A stretch of 64,000 nt of DNA from Minisyncoccota bacterium (GCA_017992005.1 JAGOPO010000001.1:4646-68645); one strand, 5' to 3'; shown: positions 5,891 through 50,977, counted from the stretch's first letter. Notes: generated by a model from the sequence alone, not told the origin. A program made the numbers and translations.

Positions 5891-8800
5891 ATGTCTAATT
5901 CTATCAAGGGCTACGTCCGCACCGTTGCGGCAAGCCTGACGATGGCGTCTACGGTGCTCTCCTTGGCAGGCTTCGCAGCCTTCCCAGTTGCAGCATACGC
6001 AGTCGCTCCAGCAGATTTCGGACTCCGAGAAGGAGACGTGATCCGCGCCACTGGCGATGTCGATTTGTATATCGTCAATGATATGGGCTACAAGCGCTTG
6101 TTTGTAAACCCAGCAATCTTCAACCTCTACGGCCACCTCGGCTGGAGCAAGGTGAAGGAAGTTGCACCTTCCACCCGCGATGCGTTCGTGACCTCTGGTC
6201 TCTTCCGCGTTGATGGTGATGCAAAGGTCTATGGCTTGGACGTCGTGTCCGAGGATGTAGCAAACCTTCGCTGGGTCAACACAACCGGTGCACAGGCAGT
6301 TGTCGATGATGCGAACTTCTTCAAGAAGGTCTTCACCGTCAATGCTGCTGAAAAGGCTTTGTATGGAATGGGCGCAGACTACACGTCTGTTCTCCAGGTT
6401 CCAAACTACAGCCGTGGCACAACCGTTGCGACTGGTCCATTGAGCGCATCTTTGGCCTACTCCAACCCAGCATCCTCAACATTGATCGAAACCCAGTCCA
6501 TGGCGGACTTGGCACACTTCAGTGTTATGGGATCTGGTGCAGTCACCAAGCTCGTCCTCAAGAAGCTCGGTGTCGCAGGTGATTCTACCCTCAGCAATGT
6601 CTATCTCTTCGTAAATGGAGAGCGCAAGTCTGATGGATTCACGTTCGCAAGTGGAGAGCTTACGCTCAACAATGCAGCTGGATTCTTCACGGCTCCTGCG
6701 ACGGTTTCTATCCGTGGAAATATTGCGGATACTACTGCCGGACAGACGATTGGTGTCGGTTTGACGATGTTGAATGATTCAGTTGTGTCTGTGAATGGAA
6801 ACATCCACACGATTGCAACGAACCCATCTGACCTCGGTAGCGTTACCGTTGTTGCTCCAACGAGCGCAGGCGACGTTAATCCACAGAGCGACGTTAAAGT
6901 ATGGGAATCTGATCTTACTATCGGTGGCAATGATATGTACTTGAAGCGCTTGTCGCTTCGCTTGCTCGGTTCCTCGAGCGTCGCAGACTTCCGCAACTTC
7001 CGCCTCTTCGTTGATGGCACACAGGTTGCTACGTCCGCTGGCTTCGATGCAAACGAGTATGTGCACTTCTTGACCAACACGAAGATCACGACCAGTGCGG
7101 GAGCGGTTGTGAAAGTTGTCGCTGATATCGTCAGCGGTTCCACTCGAACATACCAGTTCCAGCTCAAGGGTGCCTACGATTTGGAAGTCATGGATGCTGA
7201 TTACAGCGTCAACGTGACCCCAGGAGGTACCTTCCCAGCGGCCCCATCCTCAGGCACGATCGGCGGAGCTTCAGTTACGTCCATCAAGGCAACCAACTCG
7301 CCATCCGGTGATGTTGTCGATGCTGCAGATGACGTCGTCTGGGCAACCTACACACTCACCACCTACGGTGAAGCTGTGAAGATCGATACACTTAGCTTCT
7401 ATGCATCGGTTTCTGACAGCAATGTTGGATCCCTTCGCGATGGTCGCGTGTTGATCAACGGTGTTCAGTACGGTAGCACCCAGAGCTTGCTTGAGACTGC
7501 TTCTACGTCCTTCACAGTCAACTACACTCTCGTTCCTGGTTCGCCAGCAACGGTTGAGGTCCGTGCAGATGCATACGATGCATCCAGCACAGAGGATCTT
7601 ACTTCAGGTGATGTTGTCTCCGTTGTTATGGACTTCGACTCCGGTAACGCCGAGGGCGTAAGCTCAGGTAACTCCGTGAACGTTCCTGGCTCCGATATCG
7701 AAGGTAACAATCGTTCGATTGTCACCGGCTCGATGACGTTGACCAAGAACAGCGGCTATGCAAACCAGACCGTCGTTCTTCCTCAGACCGCATTCAAAGT
7801 TGGTGAGTGGAATCTTGTTGGACCAAGCACCGAAGCGGTCAACTTGAACACATTCTCACTTGATGTCAATGAGGTCGTCGGCTCGACCTTCAACGAATCT
7901 GATCTTCAGGATTTGTACATTGTGTACGGATCTCAGACGACCACGATCAAGGGAACGGTCTCAGCTGATGGTCAGGACAACGAGTTCTCGGTTAGCAAGC
8001 AGCTTGCCGCATCCGAAACCTTGAACATCAAGGCGTATGCAACCTTGAAGTCCGGTAGCGTTACTGCGAATGACTCCTTCAAGACGGACCTCTCGATCAA
8101 CGGTACAACCGTTTCTTCGGGAACTTCCTTGAACGGAAATTCAACCAACTCCGATATCGATGGTCAGACCATTGCATACGGTGCTGGTTCCTTGACGCTT
8201 GCACTTGATGCAGACTCTCCTGTCGCCCGCATCGTTGCGGATGGCCAGACTGTTGATGCAGCAAAGTTCAAGCTCACTGCAGTCAACGACACCTACAAGC
8301 CAACTCGTCTTATCTTCGGATTGACGAACACAGCTGGTATCGATTCGGCAACCGTTACGGATGGCTCGACCACCGTCGCGATGTCGATCGGCGCAGCTTC
8401 AGCTTCTATCGATCTTAACTCAGCACAGCAGGAAGCCTTCAAGGTGACCGCTGGCTCGACAAAGGTCCTTACGGTGAAGTTGGCTATCGGTTCGATTGAA
8501 ACACCAAATGGTGCAGGTACTGGCTTGAGTCACGCCGTCACCTTCGATGTTTCTGAGAGTAAGGCAATGGCAGCTTCTTCTGGAACAGAGAGCACGTTCA
8601 CGTCGCTTTCCCAGACGAACAAGAGCGGCAACGCCTTGTATGCCTATGCTGCAATCCCAACCATCAGCCGTATTGCCCTCCCAAGCACTGTGCTCGCCAA
8701 TGGCACCACAACGCTTGCGAAGTGGTCAGTCAGCTCTGGCGGAACTGGAACGATCGGCTGGATCAAGAGCATCTTTACGGTGACTCCAAGCTCAGGCGTA

Positions 8801-9208: not shown

Positions 9209-9240
9209 CCAAAACCCCCCGAAAGGGGGGTTTTGGTTTG
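9209..9240 (+). terminator. Strong rho-independent terminator (12-bp GC stem ccaaaacccccc/ggggggttttgg with GAAA loop, then T-run)
   Basis: Seen directly, 31 nt after the surface-protein stop. Confidence 0.85.
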
Positions 9241-10974: not shown

Positions 10975-12147
10975 CTATTTCAAGAGATTAGCATACTGCG
11001 CGATCATTGATTGCGTGGTGTACGTATCGAGGGCTGTGTGGCTAGCGTTCACCGCGAGGGCGGCTTTCAATTCTTGGTTTGCGGTAAGTCGGATCACAGC
11101 GCGTGCGATATCTTGCGGGTTGCCAGGATCACAGAGAATCCCATTTTTCCCGTCATCGATAATCTCCGAAACGGCTCCAACGCGAGTCGTTATCACTGGC
11201 ACGTTGGCCGCCATAGCCTCCAATAGGGCCCAGGGGAAACCTTCTTTGACAGATGGGAGTACGAATAGGTCGAATGCCTTGAGGTACCTCCATGCGTCTG
11301 GGAGGCGACCAATGAGAAAAAAACGACGCTGTATATTAAGGGCCTCTATCGTTCGTTGAAGCTCCTGTCGAAGTGGGCCATCTCCGACGACAACGTATTG
11401 AATGCTGTCCGGGGTTGCAGCAGCTGCTTCAATAAGCGTGGCGATGCCTTTTGTTGCGTATAAATTGGCAATGGTGCCCACGAGCTGCGAGGATGACGAC
11501 AGGTGACCTTGAGGGAGGTGCTTTTGGAGGGCGGCACGCGCTTCATCCCGAGTGAGAAATGGCAAATCAGTATCGATGCCGTTGTAGATACGGATAATCT
11601 GTTTTCTGGGTTTGATGCCAAGCGCGATTGCTTGCTTGAGATCGTGGGTGTTGTTGACGACGATGACATCCTTCCAAGATGCCGAGAGTTTTTCCATGAC
11701 AATGTAAAGCCTCTTTTTCCATGCGGGGATGGGGTCATTAAATGACCAGCCACCAATTCGGTATATGACCTTGAGCTGAGCGTGTTGTTTGCGTAGTCCG
11801 TGCGCTGCTCGAGAGCCAACAAATCCCGCCTTGCTCGACATGCAGAGCACGATATCCGGTCGAAAAGCACGCATCATCGTGCGCAGTTCACTCACAGCGA
11901 GCGCGTCGTGGAGGGGAGAGATCGAGCGAACAAGATGACGAGCCACCGCATGAGTGACCGATGCAGGAAGGAGACGAGCTAGGTCGTTACCCGTATGCTG
12001 GCCCCAGACGACATGAATGGTGTGCTTTGATGGATTGAGGTGTAGCGCTAGTTGCGCGAGAAATCGCTGGGCGCCACCTTCTTCGCCCTGCGTGATAACA
12101 CAGAATATTCTACGCTTTGTCGTGGTTGTAGTTGCTTCGGAAGGCAT
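10975..12147 (-). CDS. Glycosyltransferase family 4 (GT-B)
   Basis: C-terminal EGFPWALLEAMAANVPVITTRVGAVSEIIDDGKNGIL motif (E-x7-E GT4 signature). Confidence 0.85.
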   Translation of the reverse strand: MPSEATTTTTKRRIFCVITQGEEGGAQRFLAQLALHLNPSKHTIHVVWGQHTGNDLARLLPASVTHAVARHLVRSISPLHDALAVSELRTMMRAFRPDIVLCMSSKAGFVGSRAAHGLRKQHAQLKVIYRIGGWSFNDPIPAWKKRLYIVMEKLSASWKDVIVVNNTHDLKQAIALGIKPRKQIIRIYNGIDTDLPFLTRDEARAALQKHLPQGHLSSSSQLVGTIANLYATKGIATLIEAAAATPDSIQYVVVGDGPLRQELQRTIEALNIQRRFFLIGRLPDAWRYLKAFDLFVLPSVKEGFPWALLEAMAANVPVITTRVGAVSEIIDDGKNGILCDPGNPQDIARAVIRLTANQELKAALAVNASHTALDTYTTQSMIAQYANLLK

Positions 12148-12205: not shown

Positions 12206-13312
12206 ATGCGACCACGTATTCTCTTATTCTCGACAGCATATCTTCCACACATTGGAGGCAGTGAGTTGGCAATTTACCACATCGCGCGGTTTCTTCCCGA
12301 CTATGATATCGATCTGGTAACCGGAAGACTCGATAGCTCCGATGCGACAATGGAGTACATAAATCGAGTTCGTGTTTTCCGTGCCGGCGGAAGATGGTCG
12401 CGGCTTTCACTCTTGGTGCCAAAATTTCTGATGCCGATTGCGATGGCTATCACTGCGTATCGACTAACCAAAAAGTATCGATATAGCGTATTGCATGCGT
12501 ACCAGGCATCGCAGGCAGCAGTAGCGGCCGCTATCGTGAATGCATTTTGTCCAAGCATACCTCTGATCATCACACTGCAAGAGGGTAAGATTCTCAAGCA
12601 GCAACCGTGGCTTACGCAAACAATACGCGCATTCATCTTGCGTCGTGCGCGTATGATTACCGCGATTAGCAATTATCTAGCCGACTATGCAGGAAGCGTT
12701 TCTCGTGCGCCCGTTGTGGTTATTCCCAACGGAGTTGACGTGGGCGCGATGTATCACCCGGAAATTGTACGCGATGCTCATCGTATTGTGACCGTTTCGC
12801 GTTTAGTGGAAAAAAATAATGTCGAAGGCATTTTGCGGGCGATGGTTCATGTGCGGGAGCGCTTTCCGTTGGCGAAGCTACTTATTGCGGGCGATGGCCC
12901 CATGAAAGCGAGCCTGATGGGCCTTTCGTCGGATCTCGGCATCGCTGGTAGTGTTGAATTTCGAGGATTTGTGGCTCATAAAAATTTGGGAGAGATATTG
13001 AGCTCTGCTTCGATCTTTGCGCGCCCGTCCTTGAGCGAGGGGCTAGGATCAGCATTTCTCGAAGCGATGGCGGCGCACACGGCTATTGTCGCATCTTCAG
13101 TGGGTGGTATTCCTGATATCGTAGAAGATGGTGTCACGGGGCTGCTGTGCGATCCGCGTAATCCACACGATATTGCGCGTGCAATCATGACGCTCTTAGA
13201 GCAAGAGCAAACTCGCACCGAAATCGTTGAACGAGCAGATGCATTTGTGAAAAAATATGACTGGTCATCCATCGCATGGCGCATGTCAAAACTCTACGCT
13301 TCAATCGCATGA
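12206..13312 (+). CDS. Glycosyltransferase family 4
   Basis: EGLGSAFLEAMAAHTAIVASSVGGIPDIVEDGVTGLL motif. Confidence 0.85.
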   Translation: MRPRILLFSTAYLPHIGGSELAIYHIARFLPDYDIDLVTGRLDSSDATMEYINRVRVFRAGGRWSRLSLLVPKFLMPIAMAITAYRLTKKYRYSVLHAYQASQAAVAAAIVNAFCPSIPLIITLQEGKILKQQPWLTQTIRAFILRRARMITAISNYLADYAGSVSRAPVVVIPNGVDVGAMYHPEIVRDAHRIVTVSRLVEKNNVEGILRAMVHVRERFPLAKLLIAGDGPMKASLMGLSSDLGIAGSVEFRGFVAHKNLGEILSSASIFARPSLSEGLGSAFLEAMAAHTAIVASSVGGIPDIVEDGVTGLLCDPRNPHDIARAIMTLLEQEQTRTEIVERADAFVKKYDWSSIAWRMSKLYASIA

Positions 13313-14475
13313 AATCGCTTTGTATCGCAACCGGAATATTTGCTCCAGATATCGGAGGCCCAGCATCGTATGCAGCCTCGCTAGCAGCGCGATTATCAGA
13401 TGACGGCGTTCGTGTTGAGATTATTACGTATTCCAGTGTCCGAAGATTTTCTGGTGATAATCAATCGGGGTATCGTATTCATAGAATCTGGTCGGGTTGG
13501 CCGTGGGGGATTCGGCATGGCATCTACTTTCTGCGAAGTCTCATTGTAGTGAGTCGATGCGATGCTGTTCTTGCGCTCAATGCTGTCTCGGCTGGCGTTC
13601 CTGCGGCTCGTGCTGCGCGACTCTTCGGAAAGCCATATATTGTGCGTATTGCAGGAGACTACGCCTGGGAAATCGCTGTGCAAACTGCCGCGACATACCT
13701 CATGATTAATGAGTTCCAAAAATCCCCGAAGCAAGGGCGGATTCGGCGACTCCATGAGGCTCAAAAATCCATGGTGAGTCGAGCGAATGCCGTCATTGTG
13801 CCTTCTGAGTATCTCGCTGGTATCGTGCGCTCGTGGGGCGCCCCTGATGAGCGTGTTCACGTTATCTACAATGGAGTAGATCTTCCAGGCTATGAAGGGT
13901 CCAAAGAAGATGCGCGTCGCACAATTGGCGTGTCAGGCACCATCATTGTATCAGCGGGTCGTCTCGTGCCATGGAAGGGATTTCGCATGCTCATAAAAAT
14001 TATGCCTCAATTATCGCAGGTGAATCAATTCTTTCGCTTGGTTATCGTAGGTGACGGGCCAGATTTGGCAATGCTTCAATCGGTTATTCGAAATCTTGGA
14101 TTAGAGCGAAAGGTGACACTTGCGGGGCGAAAGTCGTCACGTGAGCTGGCGGTATATCTCGCGGCAGCAGATATGTTCGTGCTCAATACGGGCTATGAAG
14201 GATTTTCCCATCAAGTACTCGAGGCGATGCAAGCTGGCGTTCCCGTTATCACGACGACATCAGGGGGTAATCCGGAAGTCATAACGCAAGGGGAAAATGG
14301 CTTGATGGTCAGATACAATGATGAATTCAATCTCGTCGAAGCAATCAAGGCTCTTTCGAAGCAGGCAGAACTTCGCGAGCAATTTATTATCCAAGGGAAA
14401 AAGTCGGTTGAAGTCTTTAGTATCGAAAAGATGTACCAACAAACGAAACAGCTGCTCGAACGACTTTCGCCATGA
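13309..14475 (+). CDS. Glycosyltransferase family 4
   Basis: ATGA start/stop overlap with the upstream gene; MKSLCIATGIFAPDIGGPASY N-terminus; EGFSHQVLEAMQAGVPVITTTSGGNPEVI motif. Confidence 0.8.
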   Translation: MKSLCIATGIFAPDIGGPASYAASLAARLSDDGVRVEIITYSSVRRFSGDNQSGYRIHRIWSGWPWGIRHGIYFLRSLIVVSRCDAVLALNAVSAGVPAARAARLFGKPYIVRIAGDYAWEIAVQTAATYLMINEFQKSPKQGRIRRLHEAQKSMVSRANAVIVPSEYLAGIVRSWGAPDERVHVIYNGVDLPGYEGSKEDARRTIGVSGTIIVSAGRLVPWKGFRMLIKIMPQLSQVNQFFRLVIVGDGPDLAMLQSVIRNLGLERKVTLAGRKSSRELAVYLAAADMFVLNTGYEGFSHQVLEAMQAGVPVITTTSGGNPEVITQGENGLMVRYNDEFNLVEAIKALSKQAELREQFIIQGKKSVEVFSIEKMYQQTKQLLERLSP

Positions 14476-15557
14476 AGTTACTCATGATTAGCGGTGACCG
14501 CACGTTAGCATCCGGAAAGCAGGGTGCATTCTATAATACGCTGGAGGAGCTCCACACGCATTTCGAGCGCATCGATATCATCTGTCCTCGCGTATCGGTG
14601 CAAAGGTACAACATGGTTGTATTTGGCAATGTATATGTCCATCCATCGCCATTGCCGCTTGTACTGCAACCTTTGTGGATTTGGTTCAATGGTAAGCAAT
14701 TAATTCATAGACTTCAGCACGAGCTTATGACGGTGCATGAGTATCCACCCTTCTACAATGGCTTGGGGGCTCGACTAGTGAACTACGCGACAAAGGTGCC
14801 GTATGTCTTGGAGCTATTTCATATACCAGGTGTGCCACGGGCGTCAGGGCTCAAAGAGCACTTCTATCGGTGGCTCACGAGGCAGATTATCTCGTGGGAC
14901 GCGGCTCCTGCGCGTGTAGTGCGGGTTATGAATCAACGACAGGTGCCCGCATTCCTGCAAGACGCGGGGGTGCCGCCCCAGAAGATCCGTACTATTTCTG
15001 CTGTGTACGTTGATACAAATGTATTCACGTTTCATGATAAGCCCAAGCTCTACGATGTGGCATTTGTAGGCCGCATGGCATCCAATAAGGGGCTCAATTT
15101 GTATCTTGATGTAATCGAGAAATTAGGATGTGTTGGTGTGGCTGTAGGCGATGGGCCGCTGCTTTCATGGGCGTGTCGCCAGGCAAAACGGCGTGGATTA
15201 AAAATTCATTTTCCTGGATTCGCCGTCGACAGTACCGAGGTGGCTCGATATCTCAATGAGTCGCGAGTGCTTCTTATGCCATCGTTGAATGAAGGGGGCC
15301 CTCGTATTGTGGTGGAGTCCCTCGCATGCGGAACTCCCGTAGTGGCGACACCCGTTGGTATTGTTGAAGATGTGCTTCCACCAGAGTGTATCGAGGAATG
15401 GAATACTGCTGACTTAGCCGATAAGGTTCGTAATATTTTGGAAGATGCAACGCTCTATCGGCGATTGAGTGAGCAAGGCATCGCAACCGCTCAACAATTT
15501 GAGCGCACGAAAGCAATCGCGCATCTCGCTGATACTTTAAAATCGCTGGTGTCATGA
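14472..15557 (+). CDS. Glycosyltransferase family 4-like
   Basis: LMPSLNEGGPRIVVESLACGTPVVATPVGIVEDVL; 4-nt overlap with the upstream gene. Confidence 0.75.
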   Translation: MKLLMISGDRTLASGKQGAFYNTLEELHTHFERIDIICPRVSVQRYNMVVFGNVYVHPSPLPLVLQPLWIWFNGKQLIHRLQHELMTVHEYPPFYNGLGARLVNYATKVPYVLELFHIPGVPRASGLKEHFYRWLTRQIISWDAAPARVVRVMNQRQVPAFLQDAGVPPQKIRTISAVYVDTNVFTFHDKPKLYDVAFVGRMASNKGLNLYLDVIEKLGCVGVAVGDGPLLSWACRQAKRRGLKIHFPGFAVDSTEVARYLNESRVLLMPSLNEGGPRIVVESLACGTPVVATPVGIVEDVLPPECIEEWNTADLADKVRNILEDATLYRRLSEQGIATAQQFERTKAIAHLADTLKSLVS

Positions 15558-17323: not shown

Positions 17324-17369
17324 GAGCCCTCCTTGGACTCTGAAGCCTCGTGATTGAGACTTATATTAT

Positions 17370-17398: not shown

Positions 17399-17434
17399 TA
17401 TCGTGAAGTGAAGCGAAAATGCTATATTTTGAGC

Positions 17435-21662: not shown

Positions 21663-21672
21663 GTCAATTGTT

Positions 21673-39786: not shown

Positions 39787-40299
39787 ATGTGGATCACACA
39801 ATACGACGTTCTTCGACCGAAATTCGCTTCAATTGAGATCCTCGCATTGGACTTTGACGGCACGCTTACTGATGGTTTTGTGCACGTCCGACAGGATGGC
39901 ATGGAGACCGTTCGGTGTAGTCGTCGTGATAGCTTGGGCACCAATTTGCTTCAGGCAGCAGGTGTCAAAGTGGTTATCATCTCCAAGGAGACGAATCCAG
40001 TTGTACAGACGCGTGCCCAGAAGATGAAGGTTGACTGCTATCACGGAGTAGCTACTGGCGAGGGCAAGCTTGAAATTCTTCGTCGATACGCAGCGGAACG
40101 CCAAGTTCCACTTGAGAGAGTGTCCTACATGGGAGATGACATCAACGATCTGGAGTGCATTAAGGCCGTAGGCCTTGGTATCACTGTTGCCGATGGCCAT
40201 CCCATGTGCATTGGAGGCGCTGATTTCGTGACTACGCGCAAGGGTGGCGAGCACGCGGTGCGCGAAGTCTGCGATCTTATTTTGGAGGCAAAACGATGA
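39787..40299 (+). CDS. HAD-superfamily KdsC-type phosphatase (KDO-8-P / nonulosonate-9-P phosphatase family)
   Basis: ILALDFDGTLTDG...VVIISKE...SYMGDDINDLECIKAVGLGITVADGHP. Confidence 0.85.
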   Translation: MWITQYDVLRPKFASIEILALDFDGTLTDGFVHVRQDGMETVRCSRRDSLGTNLLQAAGVKVVIISKETNPVVQTRAQKMKVDCYHGVATGEGKLEILRRYAAERQVPLERVSYMGDDINDLECIKAVGLGITVADGHPMCIGGADFVTTRKGGEHAVREVCDLILEAKR

Positions 40300-41999: not shown

Positions 42000-42968
42000 A
42001 TGAACCCGATTCGAATCGGATCACGTTGGGTGGGAAATGGCTTTCCCTGTCTTGTCATCGCTGAAATCGGCATCAACCATAACGGTTCTGTCGAAATCGC
42101 AAAACAGCTCATCGACGTTGCCGTCGATGCTGGTTGCGAAATGGTGAAGTTCCAGAAGCGCACCATCGATGTCGTCTACACGCAGGACGAGCTCGCGAAG
42201 CTTCGTGCGTTTGATAGAAGCATCATCAAGCATGCGGTCGAGCGCTCGGGCCGCTATGGATATTCCGTTCTAGGCTCAGTTGCGGAGGCTCGTTTGCATG
42301 CCAATCCCGAAGCGACCACGAACGGAGATCTGAAGCTCGCACTCGAGTTCAATCAGCCCGAGTATCGAGAGATTGACGCGTATTGTCGGGAGCGGGGCAT
42401 CATGTGGTGCGCTTCTCCTTGGGATGAGGCAAGCGTCGATTTTCTGGAGCAGTTCAATCCCGTGTGCTACAAGCTTGCGTCGGCTTCTATCACCGATCGC
42501 AAGCTGCTCGAGCATGTGCGAAGCAAGGGTCGTCCCGTAATTCTTTCGACAGGAATGAGTACCATGGAGCAGGTGCTTGCGTCGACGGGTATTGTCGGCG
42601 ATGTGCCACTGGTGATTCTGCACTGCAACAGCACATATCCGACGGCGGATGAAGACGAGAACCTTCGCGTCATCACGACGCTTCAGAATGAGTTTCCGTT
42701 TACGCCCATCGGATACTCGGGACACGGTCATGGCACCACCCCAAGTGTTGCCACTGTCGCACTGGGAGCGAGCGTCATCGAACGGCACATCACTCTTGAT
42801 CGTGCGATGCCTGGCTCGGACCAGTCCGCGTCGCTTGAGCCCTCTGGCATCAAGCATCTCGTACATAACGTTCGGCGCCTCGAGAAGGCGCTTGGCGACG
42901 GTATGAAGCGAGTGACGCCGGCCGAAGTTGCTATTGCCGCAAAGCTGCGTCGGAAGACCGACTTCTGA
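42000..42968 (+). CDS. neuB: N-acetylneuraminate (nonulosonic acid) synthase family protein (NeuB/PseI/LegI-like)
   Basis: GNGFPCLVIAEIGINHNGSVEIAKQLIDVAVDAGCEMVKFQKRT NeuB N-terminal signature; the C-terminal SAF domain appears short or absent. Confidence 0.9.
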   Translation: MNPIRIGSRWVGNGFPCLVIAEIGINHNGSVEIAKQLIDVAVDAGCEMVKFQKRTIDVVYTQDELAKLRAFDRSIIKHAVERSGRYGYSVLGSVAEARLHANPEATTNGDLKLALEFNQPEYREIDAYCRERGIMWCASPWDEASVDFLEQFNPVCYKLASASITDRKLLEHVRSKGRPVILSTGMSTMEQVLASTGIVGDVPLVILHCNSTYPTADEDENLRVITTLQNEFPFTPIGYSGHGHGTTPSVATVALGASVIERHITLDRAMPGSDQSASLEPSGIKHLVHNVRRLEKALGDGMKRVTPAEVAIAAKLRRKTDF

Positions 42969-43021: not shown

Positions 43022-43978
43022 ATGCATATCGAACACTGGGATGTTGATGCGGAGGTTAAAAAAGAGGCGCAAGAAAATTATCGAACAAAGTTCGCACTTT
43101 CACTTGCAGGAAAGGATGCACTTACTATAGTACGAGAGCTCACGTTTGATGGCGTTGCTCCTCTCATCACTATTGATGATCTTGATTGCCTCCTTCGGTG
43201 GATTGAGAAATACTTACTGCGAAAGAATTTTTCCGGTGTTGGCGTGGAGGTTGGAGCGGGGCCGCTAGTGTTTAGCTCGGTACTCGCGCGTTGTACTGCC
43301 GTTACCAAGATGTATGGTATTGAGATATGTCAGCCTATTGTTGAGCAATTGTTTCCTGGTGTTGCACGCGGTATCGCTCAGGAGAATACAAGCAAGCTCG
43401 TCGGCGTTGTCGGAAGTTTTGATGACATGCAGCTGCCTGATGCATCTGTCGATTTTGTATTTGATTTCTTCTCGCTACATCACTCACTCGATATTGAAGT
43501 AACATTTCGCGAGATAGCTCGAGTCCTAAAACCGGGCGGCTTTCTTCTGATGCTTGATAAAGCACGTCCGGATAGTTATTCGCAGGATGATTTGGACGCT
43601 TTACTAGACACACGTTATGGGCCTGAATATAATAAACAGTTCGGAATACCCGCAGAGCAGGTGATGACCCGCCGACTCAACGGAGAGCGTGAGTATCGAC
43701 GACGTGATTGGTGGGGCGCAGCATACAATGCAGGGATTCGGGTATTTGAATCGTGGCGGATTGAAAAGCCAGATTCTGGGGGAGTTATCGGTAAGATTAA
43801 GTTAGCACTTTCTATTTTGCCCCCAAATATTCAACTACTATTATCGCGATTTATTCCACAAAGAAAGCAAACGCATAAATTTATATTAGATGATTCATCT
43901 CGTGTCTTTACTCGACATATGGAGCACTTTCGTAAAGAAATGTCGGTTATGATAGCTTATAAAAATGAGCGTACTTAA
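43022..43978 (+). CDS. Class I SAM-dependent methyltransferase
   Basis: VGVEVGAGPLVF...; VDFVFDFFSLHH...IARVLKPGGFLLMLD. Confidence 0.75.
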   Translation: MHIEHWDVDAEVKKEAQENYRTKFALSLAGKDALTIVRELTFDGVAPLITIDDLDCLLRWIEKYLLRKNFSGVGVEVGAGPLVFSSVLARCTAVTKMYGIEICQPIVEQLFPGVARGIAQENTSKLVGVVGSFDDMQLPDASVDFVFDFFSLHHSLDIEVTFREIARVLKPGGFLLMLDKARPDSYSQDDLDALLDTRYGPEYNKQFGIPAEQVMTRRLNGEREYRRRDWWGAAYNAGIRVFESWRIEKPDSGGVIGKIKLALSILPPNIQLLLSRFIPQRKQTHKFILDDSSRVFTRHMEHFRKEMSVMIAYKNERT

Positions 43979-44663
43979 TAGAATTCGTCATGCGGTACGA
44001 GATTTGTTTTGGTACCCTGTATATATTGATTCAGACTCTACCTATAATAGGTATTGGTCTCAACGGGATATGTTTGCGACATTGAATGGCTTCCAGGCTG
44101 ATCGCGTTCGGATGATCGATGCGACTCTGCGGGATGGCGATTCTGTGCTCGATATCGGTTGCGGCGATGGTAGAATTCTTTCCGAGCTTCTGAAGAGAAG
44201 GGATATTACCGCATTAGGAATCGATAGTTCTGAGGATGCTCTCGGTGTGGCACAGCAACGAGGGGTGCCTGTGCAAAGAGTTGATATTCGAAAATTGGAC
44301 CCTGATGCTATTGGGACATATGACTGGGTCTTGTTGTTGGAAGTCTTGGAGCATATGAGCAATTGTGAGGAGCTCTTAGAGTGTGCACGTGTGCACGCCA
44401 GAAAGGCAGTGATATTTTCGGTGCCCAATACTGGCTACATAACGCACCGACTTAGGCTCTTGTTTGGACGTTTCCCGCTTCAATGGCGTGCGCATCCAGG
44501 TGAGCATGTCCGTTTTTGGACGTATCGAGATATGCAGTATTGGCTTGCATCTCTTGATTATGAGCAAGACATAAGGCCGTACCAGGGTATTCCGATATTG
44601 CGTCGCATCTGGCCGAGCCTATTTGCGGCCGGGCTTTTTATAGTTGTACGCTCTCGAAGCTAG
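43965..44663 (+). CDS. Class I SAM-dependent methyltransferase (MetW/Methyltransf_11-like)
   Basis: VLDIGCGDGRILSEL...DWVLLLEVLEHMSN. Confidence 0.75.
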   Translation: MSVLNRIRHAVRDLFWYPVYIDSDSTYNRYWSQRDMFATLNGFQADRVRMIDATLRDGDSVLDIGCGDGRILSELLKRRDITALGIDSSEDALGVAQQRGVPVQRVDIRKLDPDAIGTYDWVLLLEVLEHMSNCEELLECARVHARKAVIFSVPNTGYITHRLRLLFGRFPLQWRAHPGEHVRFWTYRDMQYWLASLDYEQDIRPYQGIPILRRIWPSLFAAGLFIVVRSRS

Positions 44664-47337: not shown

Positions 47338-49613
47338 ACGAATCTTTTCTCGCAAAAGCTATCCGCTGGCTTGTCTATGCTAGTGCGTTTATTCCACTCG
47401 TAATATTTAGCCAGTACATGTCACCATTTCACTTTGGAAAGGTGGTAGTGTTCCGGAGCATCGTGCAGGTCATGGTGGCTTTGTATCTCCTTTTGGTGTG
47501 GCGAGATCGATCCTATGCGCCCAAGAGTCATCCGATCACTTGGGCATTCCTATCGTTTGCAATTGCTTTTACGATCACTTCCGGAACGTCGGTGGCGTTT
47601 TTACAGAGTTTTTGGGGGACGCTTGAGCGTATGGGCGGGCTATTTTCATTTTGGCACTACTTCTTATTTTATATCATCACAATTTCTGTGATGAGAACGC
47701 GAAGTGATTGGAGGGTGCTTCTCAATATCATGGTTGGTGTTGGTTTTGCTTCCGCAATCTATGGATTTCTCCAAAAAACAGACTGGGCATTTATTCTTGG
47801 CTCTGGCGGACGTCAACGCCCCTTTGGGACCATAGGCAATCCGGCGCTCTTTGCGGGGTACCAAATCTTGATCGCATTCCTTTCGTTAACGCTGGCATCC
47901 ATGAAGCGCACAAGTTTCAAAATGAAGCGGTGGTATTTTACAGCAGGAGGTGTCATGTTGCTGGCGGTAATATCAACAGCGGTTCGTGGCTCGCTTATTG
48001 GAATTGTTGCTGGGGGACTTACGTGGGCACTTCTCTGGGGGTCTTTGAATAGGAGTCGCCTTGCTAGGAATGGTCTACTTGCTGGCTTAACGGCTATTGT
48101 AGTGTTTGTATTTCTCGCAATGATGTTGCGGCAAACGTCCTTTGTTCAGAATTCGCCGTATTTAAAGCGCGTTACTGATTTTTCAAGTTCAACATTCACA
48201 GTGCAGACTCGATTTTGGGCATGGACCGCAGGGTATGAGGGTTGGACTGAAAATTTCAAGACGATCATGCTCGGATGGGGGCCAGAAAATTTCAACGTAC
48301 CATTCAGTAAGCACTTCAATCCGAAATTCTTTACAGGACCAGGTGCAGAAACATTCTTTGATCGTGCGCATAACATGTTTGTTGAAGTTACGGTCACGAT
48401 GGGTCTCCTGGGATTGATTTCGTATCTTTCAATCTTTGCAGCATCCTTTCGACAGTTTGCTCGTTTTATGAAAGAGAATTCAGATGCTCGAGTTATAGGG
48501 ATTGGCTTTGCGTCGATGTCGGTTGCGTATATCATCCATAATTGTTTTATCTTCGATACCTCTGCAAACTTCCTGTCGTTCTTCACTCTTCTCGCCTTTG
48601 TAGTGCATGTCGCAATCTCTGGAATTGATGCAGCGCCGATTCGAGGTTCGAGCGTGCGAGCATGGTCAGGTTTGCAGACGCTTTACATTGTTGTCGTGCC
48701 AATCATCGTCTTTGTTTCAATTTATGCTACCAATGTGCGACTATCGATGGCAAACTACGCGAGTACGAGAGCAATTGTAGCGGGATATCGAGGTGATTGG
48801 GTTTCTGCGGTCAATAAATATAGAGAAGCGATCGATATCGATGCCCCTGGGCGTTACGAATATCGACACAGATACGCACAATATTTGCTGGAGCTTTCGG
48901 GGGCAACCGATGTGAGTAAGGTTCCAAATTTTAAAGAGGTCACATTGCGCGCCATTGAAGACGTAAAGCAGAATACGATAGAAAATCCGGACGATTACCT
49001 TCCGTACCTCTATCTTTCTCGTCTGTATATAACGCTTGGAAAAGGAGATTCCAAGAGTCCGTATAATGACGAGGCGCTTCGTATGTCGGGTAAGGCGCTC
49101 GAGATTAGTCCTACCTTTGTCCGCACCTATTATGAGGTCGCTCAGGCGTACTTGAATAAGGGATTACCAGAGAGCGCCCTGGAGTGGTTTAAGAAGGCTT
49201 CGGTGCTAAACCCTGATGTTGCAATAACATACTGGTATATCGGCACGGTGCAATATCAAATTGCGGCATCGCGTAATAGCTTTGAAGGAGTTAAGGAGGC
49301 CCTACAATCGATGAATACTGGTTTGGCGAAGGGATACACGATGACGGAGCAAGATGGTCTTCGATTGATTCAGATCTATTCCCAGCTGGGCGATATGAAG
49401 AATGTTGCCGCTATGAGCGAGCGACTCGTAGTCTCGTTCCCAAAGAAAGCAGATTACTGGTCCCTCCTGATTAATGCGTACGCCGACTTAAACGAAGCTC
49501 AAAAAGTAATTGAAACAATACGACGAGCACTCGCAGTTCCTGAGATTGCTGCAGATAAAAACTTTACCGAAAAAGCAGATCTTGTATTGGGGCGTTTAGG
49601 GGCGGCACGTTAA
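47334..49613 (+). CDS. O-antigen ligase (Wzy_C) domain membrane protein fused to C-terminal TPR repeats; candidate O-oligosaccharyltransferase/polymerase
   Basis: Polytopic N-terminal domain; Wzy_C-like loop RAHNMFVEVTVTMGLLGLISYL; C-terminal TPR-like repeats (YYEVAQAYLNKGLPESALEWFKKASVLNPD...). Confidence 0.8.
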   Translation: MNESFLAKAIRWLVYASAFIPLVIFSQYMSPFHFGKVVVFRSIVQVMVALYLLLVWRDRSYAPKSHPITWAFLSFAIAFTITSGTSVAFLQSFWGTLERMGGLFSFWHYFLFYIITISVMRTRSDWRVLLNIMVGVGFASAIYGFLQKTDWAFILGSGGRQRPFGTIGNPALFAGYQILIAFLSLTLASMKRTSFKMKRWYFTAGGVMLLAVISTAVRGSLIGIVAGGLTWALLWGSLNRSRLARNGLLAGLTAIVVFVFLAMMLRQTSFVQNSPYLKRVTDFSSSTFTVQTRFWAWTAGYEGWTENFKTIMLGWGPENFNVPFSKHFNPKFFTGPGAETFFDRAHNMFVEVTVTMGLLGLISYLSIFAASFRQFARFMKENSDARVIGIGFASMSVAYIIHNCFIFDTSANFLSFFTLLAFVVHVAISGIDAAPIRGSSVRAWSGLQTLYIVVVPIIVFVSIYATNVRLSMANYASTRAIVAGYRGDWVSAVNKYREAIDIDAPGRYEYRHRYAQYLLELSGATDVSKVPNFKEVTLRAIEDVKQNTIENPDDYLPYLYLSRLYITLGKGDSKSPYNDEALRMSGKALEISPTFVRTYYEVAQAYLNKGLPESALEWFKKASVLNPDVAITYWYIGTVQYQIAASRNSFEGVKEALQSMNTGLAKGYTMTEQDGLRLIQIYSQLGDMKNVAAMSERLVVSFPKKADYWSLLINAYADLNEAQKVIETIRRALAVPEIAADKNFTEKADLVLGRLGAAR

Positions 49614-50977
49614 CGACCCGATCGACGCAGCGAGATACTTATCGTTTTTAAGACGATTTCAAGATCGAGCAAGATTGATCGATGCTTGATGTAGTAAAGA
49701 TCATACTGGAGCTTTTGAAGCGCATCTTCTACTGATGCTCCATACGGGTAGTTAATTTGAGCCCAACCAGATAAACCCGGTTTAATGAGATACCGCTCGT
49801 TATAGAATGGAATTTGAAGCGCCAACTGTGCGTCGAACTCTGGCCGTTCAGCGCGGGGTCCCACAAGCGACATATCTCCACGAAGGATATTCCAAAGCTG
49901 GGGCAGCTCATCAATCCGAGTTTTGCGGAGTAGTGAGCCAACTCTCGTAATTCGCGAGTCATTTTGTGTTGCCCAGACAGCACCAGTCGTGGCCTCGGCA
50001 TCAATCTTCATTGTTCTGAATTTAATTATTGAAAATGGCGTACCCGCGCGACCCGTTCTCGCTTGTCGAAAGAACACTGGGCCGCGCGAATCAACGAGAA
50101 TGATGGCTGCGATGAATGGAAGTGCGATGAGTGTTGGGATGCCAAGTAGTGTAGCCGAAGCAATATCCACGAAGCGCTTCATAGGATCGAGTGATTTTTT
50201 GGAGCCCTCCTCGAGGTTGTTCAAGAACCAGGTCTGATTAATCGATCCTAACGGAATTCGACCCGTGAGTTGCTCGGTGAGTGAGGTGAGAGATATAAAA
50301 TTAATTTGACGAGATATCGCCGAGTAGAAAAGGTCCACGACCTCCTTGAGCTGATATGCATCGGGAGTGATAACAACAGTATCGATGCTTTTATGAATAA
50401 TATGAGCGTCGACCTCGTTGAGATTATGTATTACACCCCAGCTCGTTGCTGAAGTGGTTGTTTCAATTGATTCATTATTAAGATGTACAAATGAACTAAT
50501 ACGGTAGCCAAGTTGTGGGTTATTCGTAATGAATGTAGCGAGTTCGATAGCTTCTTTTGTTATTCCAACTATAAGAATATTTTTCTTGGTACTACCCGCT
50601 AGGATGCGATTATAGAGTAGTCGCATGCCCCACATTCCGATTGCTAGAAGGATCAAAAAGATGAAAAGATTTCGCTTCGGTGTAATTCCAAAAAAGGGTA
50701 TGAGATAGAAGAATATAATAGAAATGACCGCGGCGAATAACATCGCTTGTGCAAGGCGTTCAAAAAATTCTCTATCATTGCGCATGAATCTGACATTGTA
50801 GAGATTTGTTATATAGAGTGCGAAAAGCCACACGAGTAGTAAAAGAGAGAATGGGACAACGTGACGACTGAACTGAATCGTAAAATCAGACCTTCCGTAG
50901 CGCAGCAAGAGTGTGACTGCAAGGGCGCCGTAGAAAGAGACGAAGTCTGAGGAGAGAAGGGTGATAATACGTGGCAT
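49610..50977 (-). CDS. Polyprenyl-phosphate sugar phosphotransferase (WbaP/WsaP-like initiating phosphoglycosyltransferase, Bac_transf family)
   Basis: KRFVDIASATLLGIPTLIALPFIAAIILVDSRGPVFFRQARTGRAGTPFSIIKFRTM...DELPQLWNILRGDMSLVGPRAERPEF. Confidence 0.9.
   Translation of the reverse strand: MPRIITLLSSDFVSFYGALAVTLLLRYGRSDFTIQFSRHVVPFSLLLLVWLFALYITNLYNVRFMRNDREFFERLAQAMLFAAVISIIFFYLIPFFGITPKRNLFIFLILLAIGMWGMRLLYNRILAGSTKKNILIVGITKEAIELATFITNNPQLGYRISSFVHLNNESIETTTSATSWGVIHNLNEVDAHIIHKSIDTVVITPDAYQLKEVVDLFYSAISRQINFISLTSLTEQLTGRIPLGSINQTWFLNNLEEGSKKSLDPMKRFVDIASATLLGIPTLIALPFIAAIILVDSRGPVFFRQARTGRAGTPFSIIKFRTMKIDAEATTGAVWATQNDSRITRVGSLLRKTRIDELPQLWNILRGDMSLVGPRAERPEFDAQLALQIPFYNERYLIKPGLSGWAQINYPYGASVEDALQKLQYDLYYIKHRSILLDLEIVLKTISISLRRSGR

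Follow-up and report, generated by a model that had tools for sequence, protein, structure and literature searches.

A glycan gene supercluster adjoining a surface-protein gene in Candidatus Pacebacteria, with a predicted role in protein O-glycosylation

Why does a bacterium of the CPR (Patescibacteria), with its tiny genome, carry some 45 kb of glycan genes adjoining the gene for a phylum-wide surface protein, and are the sugars attached to that protein? We analyzed a 64,000-nt stretch of a Candidatus Pacebacteria MAG (hereafter, the window), in which ORFs of at least 100 aa within 5891-50977 were searched by Pfam and NCBIfam profile models, and we compared the locus with about 110 related loci. 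The comparison speaks for attachment of the sugars to the surface protein but falls short of proof. We predict that this protein is O-glycosylated and that the locus is an envelope glycosylation supercluster coupled, in position and in evolution, to the gene of its most likely acceptor, a reading in which our confidence is evenly balanced. The unit probably extends to 52811 (Table 1).

Table 1. Features of the glycan locus (positions counted from the first nucleotide of the window)
Feature	Position	Strand	Basis
Ser/Thr-rich secreted surface protein, 1095 aa	5891..9178	+	N-terminal hydrophobic signal-like segment, composition
Portable ~135-aa domain, surface-protein residues 37-175	5999..6415	+	Homologue search
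Terminator-like GC hairpin and T-run, directly 3' of surface-protein gene	9215..9230	+	Consensus scan only
TMTC-like GT-C fold glycosyltransferase, C-terminal TPR domain, 566 aa	9273..10973	+	Structure model
GT4 (GT-B) glycosyltransferase, first of conserved array	10975..12147	-	Glycos_transf_1 1.4e-38
Four successive GT4s (12206-13312, 13276-14475, 14472-15557, 15554-16588)	12206..16588	+	Glycos_transf_1 4e-39 to 8e-20
203-aa ORF without family match	16712..17323	-	Pfam: none
Two GT4s (17354-18568, 18553-19710)	17354..19710	+	Pfam
GT-B-like glycosyltransferase	19744..20781	+	Glyco_trans_1_2 6e-32
Two FkbM methyltransferases (20778-21662, 21673-22401)	20778..22401	+	Methyltransf_21 2e-19, 1e-14
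GT4 glycosyltransferase	22444..23610	+	Pfam
NAD-dependent epimerase/reductase-family protein	23633..24493	+	Epimerase 1.8e-11
GT2 glycosyltransferase	24498..25226	+	Glycos_transf_2 3.3e-10
SAM methyltransferase	25214..26014	+	Methyltransf_11 8.6e-14
GtrA-like membrane protein	26014-26421	+	GtrA_DPMS_TM 5e-19
GtrB/ArnC/DPM1-like GT2	26418-27179	+	Glycos_transf_2 8e-31
Amino-sugar cassette: GNAT acetyltransferase, WbuC-like cupin, DegT/LegC-like aminotransferase	27176..29291	+	Pfam/NCBIfam
GT-C fold membrane glycosyltransferase, 565 aa, rare family	29276..30973	+	Structure model
Multi-TM protein, 616 aa, distant paralogue of 565-aa GT-C	30939..32789	+	BLASTP, hydropathy
GT4 (32789-33853) and SAM methyltransferase (33864-35042)	32789..35042	+	Pfam
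241-aa protein and 472-aa TagB/GT-B-like transferase	35045..37137	+	Pfam/NCBIfam
CMP-sugar-acid cytidylyltransferase, NeuA/PseF-like	37118..37876	-	CTP_transf_3 1e-21
B12-binding radical SAM enzyme	37942..39669	-	Radical_SAM 1e-14, B12-binding 1.5e-5
KdsC-type HAD phosphatase, xylose-isomerase-like TIM-barrel protein, SDR oxidoreductase	39787..41907	+	Pfam/NCBIfam
NeuB-family nonulosonate (sugar-acid) synthase	42000..42968	+	PF03102 4.7e-72
Two SAM methyltransferases (43022-43978, 43965-44663)	43022..44663	+	Pfam
MOP/Wzx-type flippase	44660-45982	-	Polysacc_synt 3.4e-18 / Polysacc_synt_3 9e-17 for the flippase pair
MOP/Wzx-type flippase, divergent to the preceding	46000-47337	+	Same matches for the flippase pair
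Wzy_C (O-antigen ligase/polymerase family) membrane protein with C-terminal TPR, 759 aa	47334..49613	+	Wzy_C 42.7 bits vs 31.7
WbaP/WcaJ-type polyprenyl-phosphate hexose-1-phosphate transferase (initiating)	49610..50977	-	Bac_transf 2.7e-62
Secreted HExxH putative metalloprotease, C-terminal second ~135-aa domain copy (about 52428-52808)	51054..52811	+	HELQH motif, signal peptide

The family assignments made in an earlier note from the DNA alone survived profile and fold tests. Ten genes matched Glycos_transf_1 or Glyco_trans_1_2 in Pfam and an eleventh (35719-37137) did so weakly, in line with the claim of at least 10 GT-Bs. The six SAM methyltransferases (two FkbM, with 80.5 bits on model TIGR01444, over its cut-off; three Methyltransf_11/23; one MetW-like), GtrA, two GT2s, and amino-sugar cassette were likewise recovered, as were the two Wzx flippases, the Wzy_C-TPR protein, and the initiating transferase, the last scoring 365 bits on TIGR03025 against a cut-off of 295.55. 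Candidatus Pacebacteria are a group taken as monoderm, without LPS, and the profile scan of the window returned no Wza, Wzz/PCP, LCP, ABC exporter, or outer-membrane export genes, contrary to what a conventional LPS or capsule locus with outer-membrane export would show.

The protein that heads the locus fits the S/T-rich secreted product claimed for it: Ser and Thr make up 24% of its residues, compared with 12.8% across all window proteins, the N terminus is signal-like, and Cys is lacking. Pfam, NCBIfam, and PDB searches gave zero relatives. It belongs, by its 373 homologues (36-53% identity across the full length; 79 GTDB loci encode a homologue), to a Patescibacteria-wide family of ~1100 aa. 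The ~135-aa domain near its N terminus had no match in Pfam or PDB and was found in 1308 cluster representatives at E<=1e-3; among the best 146 of these 1308 matches, 121 have it N-terminally and 22 at the very C terminus, in carriers of 144-1340 aa with a domain identity of 50-86%. In surface-protein orthologues of other lineages, PG_binding_1 stands in its place. The C terminus of the HExxH protein, which matches the MXAN_6640 HExxH model at 2.5e-6, resembles the surface-protein N terminus (BLASTP 9e-9), and extra copies of the domain occur on small proteins adjoining the surface gene in two related loci (L007, L008). Judged by this distribution, the domain is probably a cell-wall or glycan anchor of a new family.

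We surveyed 51 GTDB species loci whose sequence continues for at least 5 kb past the 3' end of the surface gene, and 64 loci for the upstream side. In 26/51 loci the first 5 kb downstream include a TPR-type lipid-linked-glycan transferase, a Wzy_C homologue in 19 and a GT-C/TPR protein in 7, never both at one locus, whereas neither was found within 5 kb upstream in any of the 64 (Fisher p = 5.6e-12, uncorrected for phylogeny). Pfam Wzy_C was present in 10/10 of the downstream Wzy_C neighbours checked and TPRs in 7/10. Surface genes of the PG_binding_1 type that have no glycan array nearby still include cases with a downstream transferase, which links the transferase to the protein and not to a polymer locus. 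This adjacency suggests a dedicated acceptor and lends no support to the "general" glycosylation system that had been proposed.

Synteny with relatives, a check suggested with that proposal, held for the left end of the locus. Conserved gene order extends from DUF5671 and FKBP across the surface gene and on to the GT4 array; five loci (L004-L008) keep the succession of surface gene, GT-C/TPR, reverse-strand GT4, and GT4 array, with surface proteins just 35-50% identical. In these loci the first GT4 has orthologues of 40-55% identity at the same position; the next four keep their order in relatives (33-71% identity), and the pair at 17354..19710 shares 70-83% identity with its L004 and L008 orthologues. 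Because the GT4 orthologues flanking the 203-aa ORF abut in the latter two loci, this ORF looks like an insertion. In some close relatives, L004 and L008, the GT-C/TPR gene is absent or degraded, so that it is not obligatory. Past the first seven GT4 genes, content varies between relatives.

At the right end, seven loci (L094, L098, L099, L114-117) keep the order Wzy_C-TPR, initiating transferase, HExxH protein, HPF, and SecA, and in three of them (L114, L115, L117) the amino-sugar cassette, GT2, and a relative of the 565-aa protein again adjoin Wzy_C-TPR. Orthologues of the window Wzy_C-TPR protein (42-72% identity) always lie within this locus type, some at its right end, as here, and others at the left end, directly beside GT-C/TPR genes and anchor-domain proteins. 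The hydropathy profile of the window protein (9 hydrophobic segments and, after a 76-aa loop, 4 more) predicts that the TPR domain lies outside the cell, where it could hold a protein substrate. Sequence matching found no relative of solved structure, and the protein could equally be an en-bloc glycan transferase or a polymerase, as its sequence does not separate ligase, O-oligosaccharyltransferase, and polymerase.

Several observations count against O-glycosylation of the surface protein. In the window, 38 kb separate Wzy_C-TPR from the surface gene; roughly half of the loci surveyed lack both types of transferase in the vicinity; the Ala/Ser-rich stretch toward the surface-protein C terminus shows a mild enrichment only, family-wide; and GT4 identity, reaching 83%, exceeds the conservation of the surface protein. 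The last point would be expected if the glycan were a conserved ligand. As the main alternative, the product may be a secondary cell-wall glycopolymer (SCWP, PS-II, or capsule-like), built by the GT4s, flipped by Wzx, polymerised by Wzy_C-TPR, and decorated by the GT-Cs, which, fixed to the wall, would be the ligand of the ~135-aa domain. We regard this as possible though doubtful, and it is compatible with protein glycosylation. It accounts for the portability of the domain to either terminus, its exchange for PG_binding_1, and its second copy where the locus ends on the opposite side. GT4 arrays of at least 3 genes, moreover, accompany 8/15 surface genes with the domain and 0/36 others (p = 1e-5), an association that is confounded with phylogeny; conserved GT4s confined to one N-terminal domain type fit a wall-polymer ligand at least as well. 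On the other hand, the profile scan of the window detected neither an LCP-type ligase nor Wzz/PCP nor a pyruvyl transferase, at least 10 different GTs and 6 methyltransferases are many for a repeat unit, and the TPRs fused to Wzy_C and GT-C hint at protein partners. PG_binding_1-type surface genes, which would need no such polymer, nevertheless immediately precede Wzy_C-TPR genes.

Evidence for protein glycosylation also comes from the GT-C enzymes. The TMTC-like protein and the 565-aa protein were modelled as GT-C fold enzymes with high confidence, bearing out the first as a GT-C/TPR enzyme. The two GT-C-like paralogues claimed farther downstream fared unequally: the fold stands for the 565-aa protein, with ArnT and AftA among its best matches, and the 616-aa protein (about 10 hydrophobic segments by hydropathy) is tied to it by a weak similarity, in BLASTP matches at E ~1e-4 that are collinear at the two termini. 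When TMTC motif definitions (PMC7801869) were applied to the GT-C/TPR family, the catalytic DD motif was kept in 57/57 and 55/57 sequences, together with YRP, RxD, and E..Y. The window protein gave no match to Pfam DUF1736 or PMT_2, even at E<=5; its TPR domain is predicted to face outward and could hold a protein substrate. The GtrA-like protein and the adjoining GT2, whose top NCBIfam matches (ArnC, Dol-P-hexose transferase, PgfS, AglJ) each fall under cut-off, are probably a polyprenyl-phosphate-sugar synthase pair.

The company of three GT-C enzymes, this pair, and an Arn-like amino-sugar cassette would also suit the synthesis of a lipoglycan or glycolipid, or the extracytoplasmic decoration of peptidoglycan or a teichoic-like polymer, with the surface gene a mere neighbour. 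The GT4s would act on a lipid anchor like PimA/B (LM/LAM), and the GT-Cs like YfhO, GtrC, or ArnT. The ArnT and AftA fold matches agree with this, as do the flanks, where the profile scan found genes for the envelope and for secretion (FKBP foldase, LTD protein, SecA, SecDF). We nevertheless consider it unlikely, for a glycan linked to Und-PP is what the WbaP-type initiating transferase and Wzx would lead one to expect, no enzyme specific to a lipid anchor was identified, and the directional, recurrent adjacency of TPR-transferase and surface gene is left unexplained. That unrelated, horizontally acquired cassettes lie by chance beside an unrelated surface gene, forming no single system, is very improbable: the G+C dips (0.44-0.47 at 18-38 kb and 44-52 kb; 0.50-0.53 in the rest), the variable content after the seventh GT4, and the inserted ORF would fit, but the left-end order is kept despite surface-protein divergence, the right end is conserved from Wzx to SecA, and the TPR-transferase adjacency recurs across many lineages.

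The middle of the locus carries the enzyme families of the nonulosonate module claimed for it, although NeuB and the CMP-transferase fall under the NCBIfam equivalog cut-offs. The NeuB-family protein scored under both the NeuB and PseI cut-offs, with a match to the 329-position NeuB model that ends near position 277; the cytidylyltransferase reached 118.7 bits on the PseF model (cut-off 205.7) and the phosphatase 103.9 on TIGR01670 (cut-off 106.95). As DegT also scores under its equivalog cut-off, these matches do not specify the sugar. The B12-binding radical SAM enzyme is probably a methylase, given weak matches to class B rSAM methyltransferases. A candidate for the nonulosonate transferase is the 472-aa protein (Glyphos_transf 1.3e-6; BFO_1060-family GT 1.8e-8, with 33.9 bits where the cut-off is 200); the neighbouring 241-aa protein weakly matches 2OG-FeII_Oxy_3 (2OG-Fe(II) oxygenase; 0.0026). 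The profile scan found no nonulosonate-precursor 4,6-dehydratase or 2-epimerase in the window, so that the "complete" pathway suggested earlier is unproven. The NCBIfam scan did not recognise the epimerase-family protein at 23633..24493 as a 4,6-dehydratase.

If the surface protein is indeed the acceptor, the WbaP-type transferase, whose family match exceeds the curated cut-off, would prime undecaprenyl phosphate. The 10 or 11 cytoplasmic GT-Bs would then lengthen the lipid-linked oligosaccharide and the six SAM methyltransferases modify it, in an order and on substrates that we infer. A CMP-activated NeuB-type sugar acid, made by NeuB, the phosphatase, the CMP-transferase, and the rSAM enzyme, may cap the chain. 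One of the two Wzx flippases would carry the glycan over the membrane, and outside the cell Wzy_C-TPR would transfer it to Ser/Thr of the surface protein, like PglL, PilO, and WsaB. In a second branch, GT2 and GtrA would make polyprenyl-phosphate monosaccharides, supplied by the DegT, GNAT, and cupin genes, as donors for the three GT-C enzymes (the 616-aa one by similarity only) outside the membrane. The TMTC-like GT-C/TPR enzyme, encoded directly downstream, would most likely glycosylate Ser/Thr of the surface protein itself.

Parts of the locus resemble several known systems. As in the S-layer/wall-polymer pairs known from Firmicutes (in Bacillus, SLH and pyruvylated SCWP; C. difficile slpA CWB2, PS-II, secA2), where S-layer gene and polymer locus are neighbours, a major surface-protein gene adjoins a large GT locus near SecA, and a modular, swappable putative wall-anchor domain is common to other secreted proteins. 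Here, however, the anchor-like domain is a new family and not SLH, CWB2, or LysM, its anchor role is predicted, and the window holds no LCP ligase or CsaB. With the three-component Gtr/Arn/Pgf/CsbB-YfhO systems (synthase, small flippase, GT-C), the Pgf member of which glycosylates surface adhesins in S. mutans, the locus shares a GtrA-like protein, a GtrB/ArnC/PgfS-like GT2, a DegT aminotransferase as ArnB, and GT-C fold membrane enzymes. It differs in having three GT-Cs from two unrelated undescribed families, one with TPRs, and in placing the module inside a much larger Wzx-dependent locus.

The general O-glycosylation locus of Tannerella forsythia and other Bacteroidota likewise combines many GTs and methyltransferases with a CMP-nonulosonate module and Wzx, and targets S-layer and surface proteins, as predicted here; the 472-aa protein adds its weak match to the BFO_1060 family, far under cut-off. 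In contrast, our host is taken as monoderm, the transferase class differs, and Pse/Leg dehydratase genes, which would define the nonulosonate type, were not found in the window. The GT-C/TPR protein shares with eukaryotic TMTC1-4 (GT-C/PMT clan) and with actinobacterial and yeast PMTs the GT-C fold with about 11 TM helices. Its C-terminal TPRs, predicted to be non-cytoplasmic, and its YRP, RxD, and E..Y motifs recall TMTC1-4, its DD motif, in external loop 1, has the residue numbers that it has in TMTC3 (31-32), and the locus also encodes a DPM1/GtrB-like polyprenyl-phosphate sugar synthase. The lysine of KE(T/Q)xxT, however, is His in the window protein, and the DW motif was not recognised. 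We know of no characterised bacterial member of this TMTC-like GT-C/TPR type.

Finally, the Wzy_C-TPR protein is a Wzy_C polytopic membrane protein like PglL, PilO (TfpO), PglS, and WsaB of Neisseria, Pseudomonas, Acinetobacter, and Geobacillus stearothermophilus, which likewise go with a WbaP/WsaP-type initiator and an Und-PP-linked oligosaccharide from cytoplasmic GTs. The analogy to Geobacillus drawn earlier is loose, as Geobacillus exports by an ABC transporter and this locus by Wzx. The present protein also differs in its fused C-terminal, probably extracytoplasmic TPR domain, in its CPR host, and in that its function is predicted. An O-oligosaccharyltransferase gene adjoining the gene of its substrate is a known pattern (pilA-pilO/tfpO, comP-pglS), and in relatives of the window locus, as in pilA-pilO, the gene for the candidate acceptor is directly followed by the Wzy_C gene.

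We scanned all ORFs of at least 100 aa against Pfam and the key ones also against NCBIfam, and the gene inventory of the earlier note proved correct. The ~45-kb glycan locus holds ten GT-B glycosyltransferases plus a weak eleventh of the TagB/GT-B-like type, six SAM methyltransferases, one GtrA, and two GT2s. Its right end carries two MOP flippases, a Wzy_C protein fused to TPRs (Wzy_C-TPR), and a WbaP/WcaJ-type initiating transferase (TIGR03025, 365 bits against a cut-off of 295.55); the initiating PGT and the Wzx flippase of a Wzx/Wzy-dependent polysaccharide (O-antigen/capsule) pathway are both present. The downstream flank encodes HPF, SecA, an M16 peptidase, and SecD/SecF. The flank families recur in this order beside the surface gene of related Patescibacteria; those upstream are DUF5671, an FKBP foldase anchored in the membrane, and a Lamin-tail-domain protein.

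CPR bacteria are considered to be monoderm, with no LPS. Among the ORFs of at least 100 aa in the 64-kb window, we detected no Wzz/PCP, Wza/Wzc, ABC exporter, or LCP. A conventional LPS O-antigen locus was rejected because the organism is taken as monoderm and the window contains no outer-membrane export genes; the earlier note had named a conventional LPS or capsule locus with such genes nearby as the finding that would overturn its reading. Neither tRNA genes nor obvious mobile-element boundaries were found in the window. The G+C content is 0.44-0.47 at 18000-38000 and 44000-52000, compared with 0.50-0.53 in the flanks and at 38-44 kb. Together with the variable gene content past the first GT4 genes, these dips fit cassette turnover or exchange in the middle and right of the locus.

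Features of the glycan locus and its surroundings (window coordinates unless a comparison locus is named)
Feature	Position (strand)	Assignment	Remark
Upstream block	862-5257	DUF5671 membrane protein, membrane-anchored FKBP prolyl isomerase, trypsin-like protein, 190-aa protein, Ser/Thr-rich Lamin-tail-domain protein	
Leader	5258-5890	noncoding, 633 bp	
Surface protein	5891-9178 (+)	secreted, Ser/Thr-rich, 1095 aa	
Anchor-like domain	5999-6415	~135 aa	N-terminal in surface protein
Hairpin	within 9179-9272	strong GC hairpin and T-run	directly after surface gene
GT-C/TPR	9273-10973 (+)	TMTC-like, 566 aa	
First GT4	10975-12147 (-)	GT4	
Small ORF	16712-17323 (-)	no family match, 203 aa	in ~760-bp gap between two GT4 genes
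Epimerase-family protein	23633-24493		
GT2	26418-27179	GT2	
565-aa protein	29276-30973 (+)	GT-C fold	
616-aa protein	30939-32789 (+)		distant paralog of 565-aa protein
Oxygenase-like protein	35045-35770	2OG-Fe(II) oxygenase-like	weak
Eleventh GT-B	35719-37137	TagB/GT-B-like	weak
Radical SAM	37942-39669 (-)	B12-dependent	
Wzy_C-TPR	47334-49613 (+)	759 aa	
Initiating transferase	49610-50977 (-)	WbaP/WcaJ type	
HExxH protein	51054-52811	secreted HELQH putative metalloprotease, MXAN_6640 type	weak family match; anchor-like domain C-terminal
Second anchor-like domain	52428-52808		end of HExxH protein
Extra gene, L005	15142-16641	no Pfam match	between GT-C/TPR and first GT4
Extra gene, L006	15138-16622	no Pfam match	same position
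Extra gene, L007	20640-22145	no Pfam match	same position
Extra gene, L008	15028-16467	no Pfam match	same position
Anchor-like domain, L007	14134-14541		ends small protein adjoining surface gene
Anchor-like domain, L008	14013-14426		ends small protein adjoining surface gene

The surface protein has a signal-like N terminus, no cysteine at all, and a Ser+Thr content of 24%, compared with a window mean of 12.8%. Its homologs (n = 373) are nearly all ~1100 aa long, share 36-53% identity across the full length, and come from MAGs labeled Paceibacteria, Yanofsky-, Nomura-, Staskawicz-, Doudna-, Uhr-, Curtiss-, and "Saccharibacteria"; the window's own protein is also present on three more metagenome contigs. 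The core (residues ~180-1093) is conserved, and the N-terminal ~135 residues are swappable, being of the window type, PG_binding_1, or something else. No SLH, CWB2, or other Pfam domain was detected in the protein even at E ≤ 5, and profile and sequence searches gave no match to the family among PDB chains. Secretion signals and wide conservation are what the analysis shows for this protein; an S-layer identity, with formation of a 2-D lattice, would be speculative. We also considered, as a possible acceptor region, an Ala/Ser-rich low-complexity stretch that precedes a conserved C-terminal FVWTD motif, and dropped it as evidence because its enrichment was mild (A+S+T+G+P of 0.61 versus 0.48).

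The long leader in front of the surface gene and the hairpin behind it fit a gene that is expressed separately and highly. The upstream block is conserved ahead of the surface gene in most close relatives and may serve as a unit that secretes and folds the surface protein.

The anchor-like domain at the N terminus of the surface protein, undescribed and highly conserved, matched 1308 cluster representatives at E ≤ 1e-3 (213 at 1e-30; 50-86% identity). Among the best 146 matches, it lies just after the signal peptide in 121 and at the extreme C terminus in 22, in host proteins of 144-1340 aa, and orthologous surface proteins elsewhere carry PG_binding_1 in its place. The domain has no Pfam match, and PDB chains gave chance-level matches (E ≥ 0.024). 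As judged from this distribution, it behaves as a portable wall-anchoring module and probably anchors CPR proteins to the cell wall or to a glycan. A second copy forms the end of the HExxH protein, and in two related loci (L007 and L008) the domain terminates small proteins next to the surface gene. The HExxH protein matched nothing in Pfam at E ≤ 5 and, in several relatives, lies between the initiating transferase and HPF-SecA. Its ORF start at 50961 (GTG) is probably wrong, because the signal peptide starts at the ATG at 51054.

In the related loci L004-L008, the surface proteins are 35-50% identical, yet the gene order is kept: DUF5671, FKBP, trypsin-like protein, 190-aa protein, Lamin-tail-domain protein, surface gene, GT-C/TPR (absent from some), a minus-strand GT4, and six GT4 genes. 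The GT4 orthologs reach 83% identity. The GT-C/TPR gene is degraded in L004 and missing in L008. Four of these loci (L005-L008) carry a ~480-500-aa gene between GT-C/TPR and the first GT4 that is absent from that position in the window. The 203-aa ORF between two GT4 genes of the window resembles a small insertion or the remnant of a gene, as the flanking GT4s are directly adjacent in L004 and L008.

We then surveyed 79 GTDB species loci in phylogenetically uncorrected counts; in 51 of them the sequence extends 5 kb or more past the surface gene, and 64 were counted on the upstream side. Within 5 kb downstream, a GT-C/TPR homolog occurred in 7/51 and a Wzy_C membrane-domain homolog in 19/51, never both (0/51), whereas neither transferase occurred within 5 kb upstream in any of the 64 loci (Fisher p = 5.6e-12). 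Wzy_C is thereby linked to the gene of the candidate acceptor; the window's own copy lies 38 kb off in the same locus. Among the Wzy_C neighbors checked, the Pfam Wzy_C domain was present in 10/10 (E 1e-10 to 1e-25) and C-terminal TPRs in 7/10. Many loci with a downstream transferase lack a glycan array in the vicinity and have a surface gene of the PG_binding_1 type. GT4 arrays of at least three genes were found only with the window-type N-terminal domain (8/15 versus 0/36, p = 1e-5), an association confounded with phylogeny. The downstream Wzy_C homologs are often two tandem copies, located 0.4-4.6 kb from the surface gene in L024, L030, L040, L046, L061, L070, and L082, and those checked by Pfam mostly have TPRs too. 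Such a pair may reflect the presence of two glycans or of two acceptor specificities.

In Wzy_C-TPR, the Wzy_C domain (PF04932) scored 42.7-43.9 bits against a cut-off of 31.7. Hydropathy indicates nine hydrophobic segments, a 76-aa loop (272-347), four more segments, and then the TPRs. WaaL and PglL have their Wzy_C loop on the outside, and on that basis the TPRs are predicted to lie outside the cell. The transmembrane part had no match, and hence no solved relative, among PDB chains. Transfer of an Und-PP-glycan en bloc to Ser/Thr by this protein is putative, since its sequence does not separate transfer from polymerization or ligation; lipid A-core is an improbable acceptor in a CPR bacterium that is regarded as monoderm. 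Orthologs (42-72% identity) occur at 33 metagenome loci in two arrangements. The first, as in the window, reads Wzx, Wzy_C-TPR, minus-strand initiating transferase, HExxH/anchor-domain protein, HPF, and SecA. In the second, Wzy_C-TPR stands at the left end, between one to three GT-C/TPR paralogs with anchor-domain proteins and the minus-strand GT4 and GT4 array. Ahead of the ortholog in L114-L117 come a relative of the 565-aa protein (24% identity) and then GT2, GNAT, cupin, and DegT, a run that defines an Arn/Gtr-like submodule.

The GT-C/TPR enzyme has a GT-C fold membrane domain, modeled as ~11 long helices, followed by TPRs at residues 402-565. From the helix count, and because the DD loop has to face outside, the TPRs would be non-cytoplasmic. 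TMTC enzymes are defined by motifs M1-M7: DD, SHKSYRP, RxD, KE(T/Q)xxT, DW, PxxP, and ERxxY (PMC7801869). In an alignment of 57 family sequences, Asp-31 is invariant and Asp-32 near-invariant in the first external loop, and Tyr-69-Arg-70-Pro-71, Arg-153-x-Asp-155, and Glu-341..Tyr-345 are conserved, corresponding to M1, part of M2, M3, and M7 by these definitions. The KE motif (M4) reads His-192-Glu-193, with Lys in 48/57 relatives, and no DW motif was recognized. Residues 1-400 gave no Pfam match to TMTC_DUF1736 (PF08409) or PMT_2 (PF13231), even at E ≤ 5; a few family members have precomputed matches to one or the other. The label "TMTC-like" given by the earlier note therefore holds for the architecture and most catalytic motifs but not for strict Pfam membership. 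Searches of PDB chains with the family returned matches dominated by the TPRs. Ser/Thr transfer from a polyprenyl-phosphate sugar by this enzyme is putative.

Neither the 565-aa protein, whose structural model has a GT-C fold, nor its 616-aa paralog (collinear matches, E ~1e-4) has a Pfam match at E ≤ 5. A role of the 565-aa protein as an STT3/PglB-type N-oligosaccharyltransferase was rejected, as its sequence has no WWDYG-like motif and the fold likeness is generic to GT-C. Altogether, four enzymes of the locus (three GT-C and one Wzy_C) are predicted to draw on lipid-linked donors at the outer side of the membrane; two of them have TPRs.

The three components of a Gtr/Arn/Pgf system are present as GtrA (GtrA_DPMS_TM, 5e-19), GT2 (8e-31), and the 565-aa protein. 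The best NCBIfam matches of the GT2 at 26418-27179 are ArnC, Dol-P-hexose transferase, PgfS, and AglJ, all below cut-off. An amino-sugar cassette comprises GNAT, a WbuC-like cupin, and DegT. The sugar-acid module contains NeuB (PF03102, 4.7e-72), a CMP-transferase of the cytidylyltransferase family (PF02348, 1e-21), a KdsC-type phosphatase, a B12-dependent radical SAM enzyme, a sugar-phosphate-isomerase-like TIM barrel, and an SDR. The claim of a "complete" pathway could not be maintained, because the NCBIfam equivalog cut-offs are reached by none of NeuB, the CMP-transferase, and DegT and the window holds no family of the nonulosonate precursor enzymes (UDP-GlcNAc 2-epimerase and PseB/LegB 4,6-dehydratase); the sole epimerase-family protein gave weak PseB/LegB matches (E 1e-4 to 1e-5). 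Instead, the KdsC-like phosphatase hints that synthesis passes through a phosphorylated sugar. The radical SAM enzyme and the weak oxygenase-like protein, both inside this module, suggest that the sugar may undergo unusual C-methylation or hydroxylation.

The glycosylation interpretation of the earlier note is partly supported: the analysis shows families, folds, motifs, and gene linkage, and from these we infer every transfer step and the acceptor. Dedicated O-oligosaccharyltransferases are encoded beside their substrates in pilA-pilO/tfpO and comP-pglS. We favor protein O-glycosylation of the surface protein, with confidence and doubt in about equal parts, because the recurrent, directional linkage of surface gene and TPR-transferase mirrors these pairs and because it is also seen at loci that have no polymer locus close by and whose surface protein carries a peptidoglycan-binding domain of its own. 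In one branch, Wzy_C-TPR would transfer an Und-PP-oligosaccharide en bloc to the surface protein; in the other, the GT-C enzymes would transfer from polyprenyl-P-sugars in a TMTC/Pgf/Arn-like manner. Only tentatively do we extend this to a lineage-wide system, in which Patescibacteria would O-glycosylate a dedicated, conserved surface protein of ~1100 aa, recognized by a TPR-fused Wzy_C oligosaccharyltransferase or a bacterial TMTC-type GT-C, and the ~135-aa domain would anchor this protein and hundreds of other CPR secreted proteins to the glycan of the adjacent GT4 array.

As the main rival, the highly conserved GT4 array may build a wall-associated glycopolymer that would be the ligand of the portable N-terminal domain, in analogy to SLH/SCWP and CWB2/PS-II, with Wzy_C-TPR as its polymerase. 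We regard this as less likely than not; the linkage of transferase and surface gene at loci lacking a nearby polymer locus favors O-glycosylation, and the two models can coexist. A lipoglycan or wall-decoration locus is improbable. Chance juxtaposition of cassettes, to which the G+C dips and the variable content beyond the first GT4 genes would lend themselves, is very improbable in view of the conserved synteny.

CPR/Patescibacteria account for a large part of bacterial diversity; they are attached to host cells, and their genomes measure ~1 Mb. By this general figure for the group, a 45-kb locus would devote ~4-5% of the genome to surface glycans. To our knowledge, there is no experimental knowledge of protein glycosylation or wall polymers in these bacteria, and we know of no characterized bacterial member of the Wzy_C-TPR or TMTC-like GT-C classes. 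Our literature searches found no publication on CPR/Patescibacteria S-layer or protein glycosylation, and a 2024 Saccharibacteria preprint calls glycosylation in that group "unexplored." From the comparative pattern come a candidate acceptor, a candidate new wall-anchoring domain, and candidate transferases of two classes, Wzy_C-TPR and bacterial TMTC-like GT-C. Its value lies in providing testable candidates in a barely studied phylum, with possible uses in glycoengineering, in research on how episymbionts and hosts recognize each other, and in work on phage receptors of CPR. If true, the lineage-wide system would provide the first natural substrate for bacterial TMTC homologs and Wzy_C-TPR fusions.

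Compared with known systems, the locus resembles a hybrid of PglL/WsaB-type O-glycosylation, Gtr/Arn/Pgf three-component glycosylation, and a Bacteroidota-style locus for a methylated, nonulosonate-containing glycan. It differs from these three in having TPR fusions on both transferase classes and three GT-C enzymes of undescribed families. It also uses Wzx for export, not an ABC transporter, and its host is a CPR bacterium.
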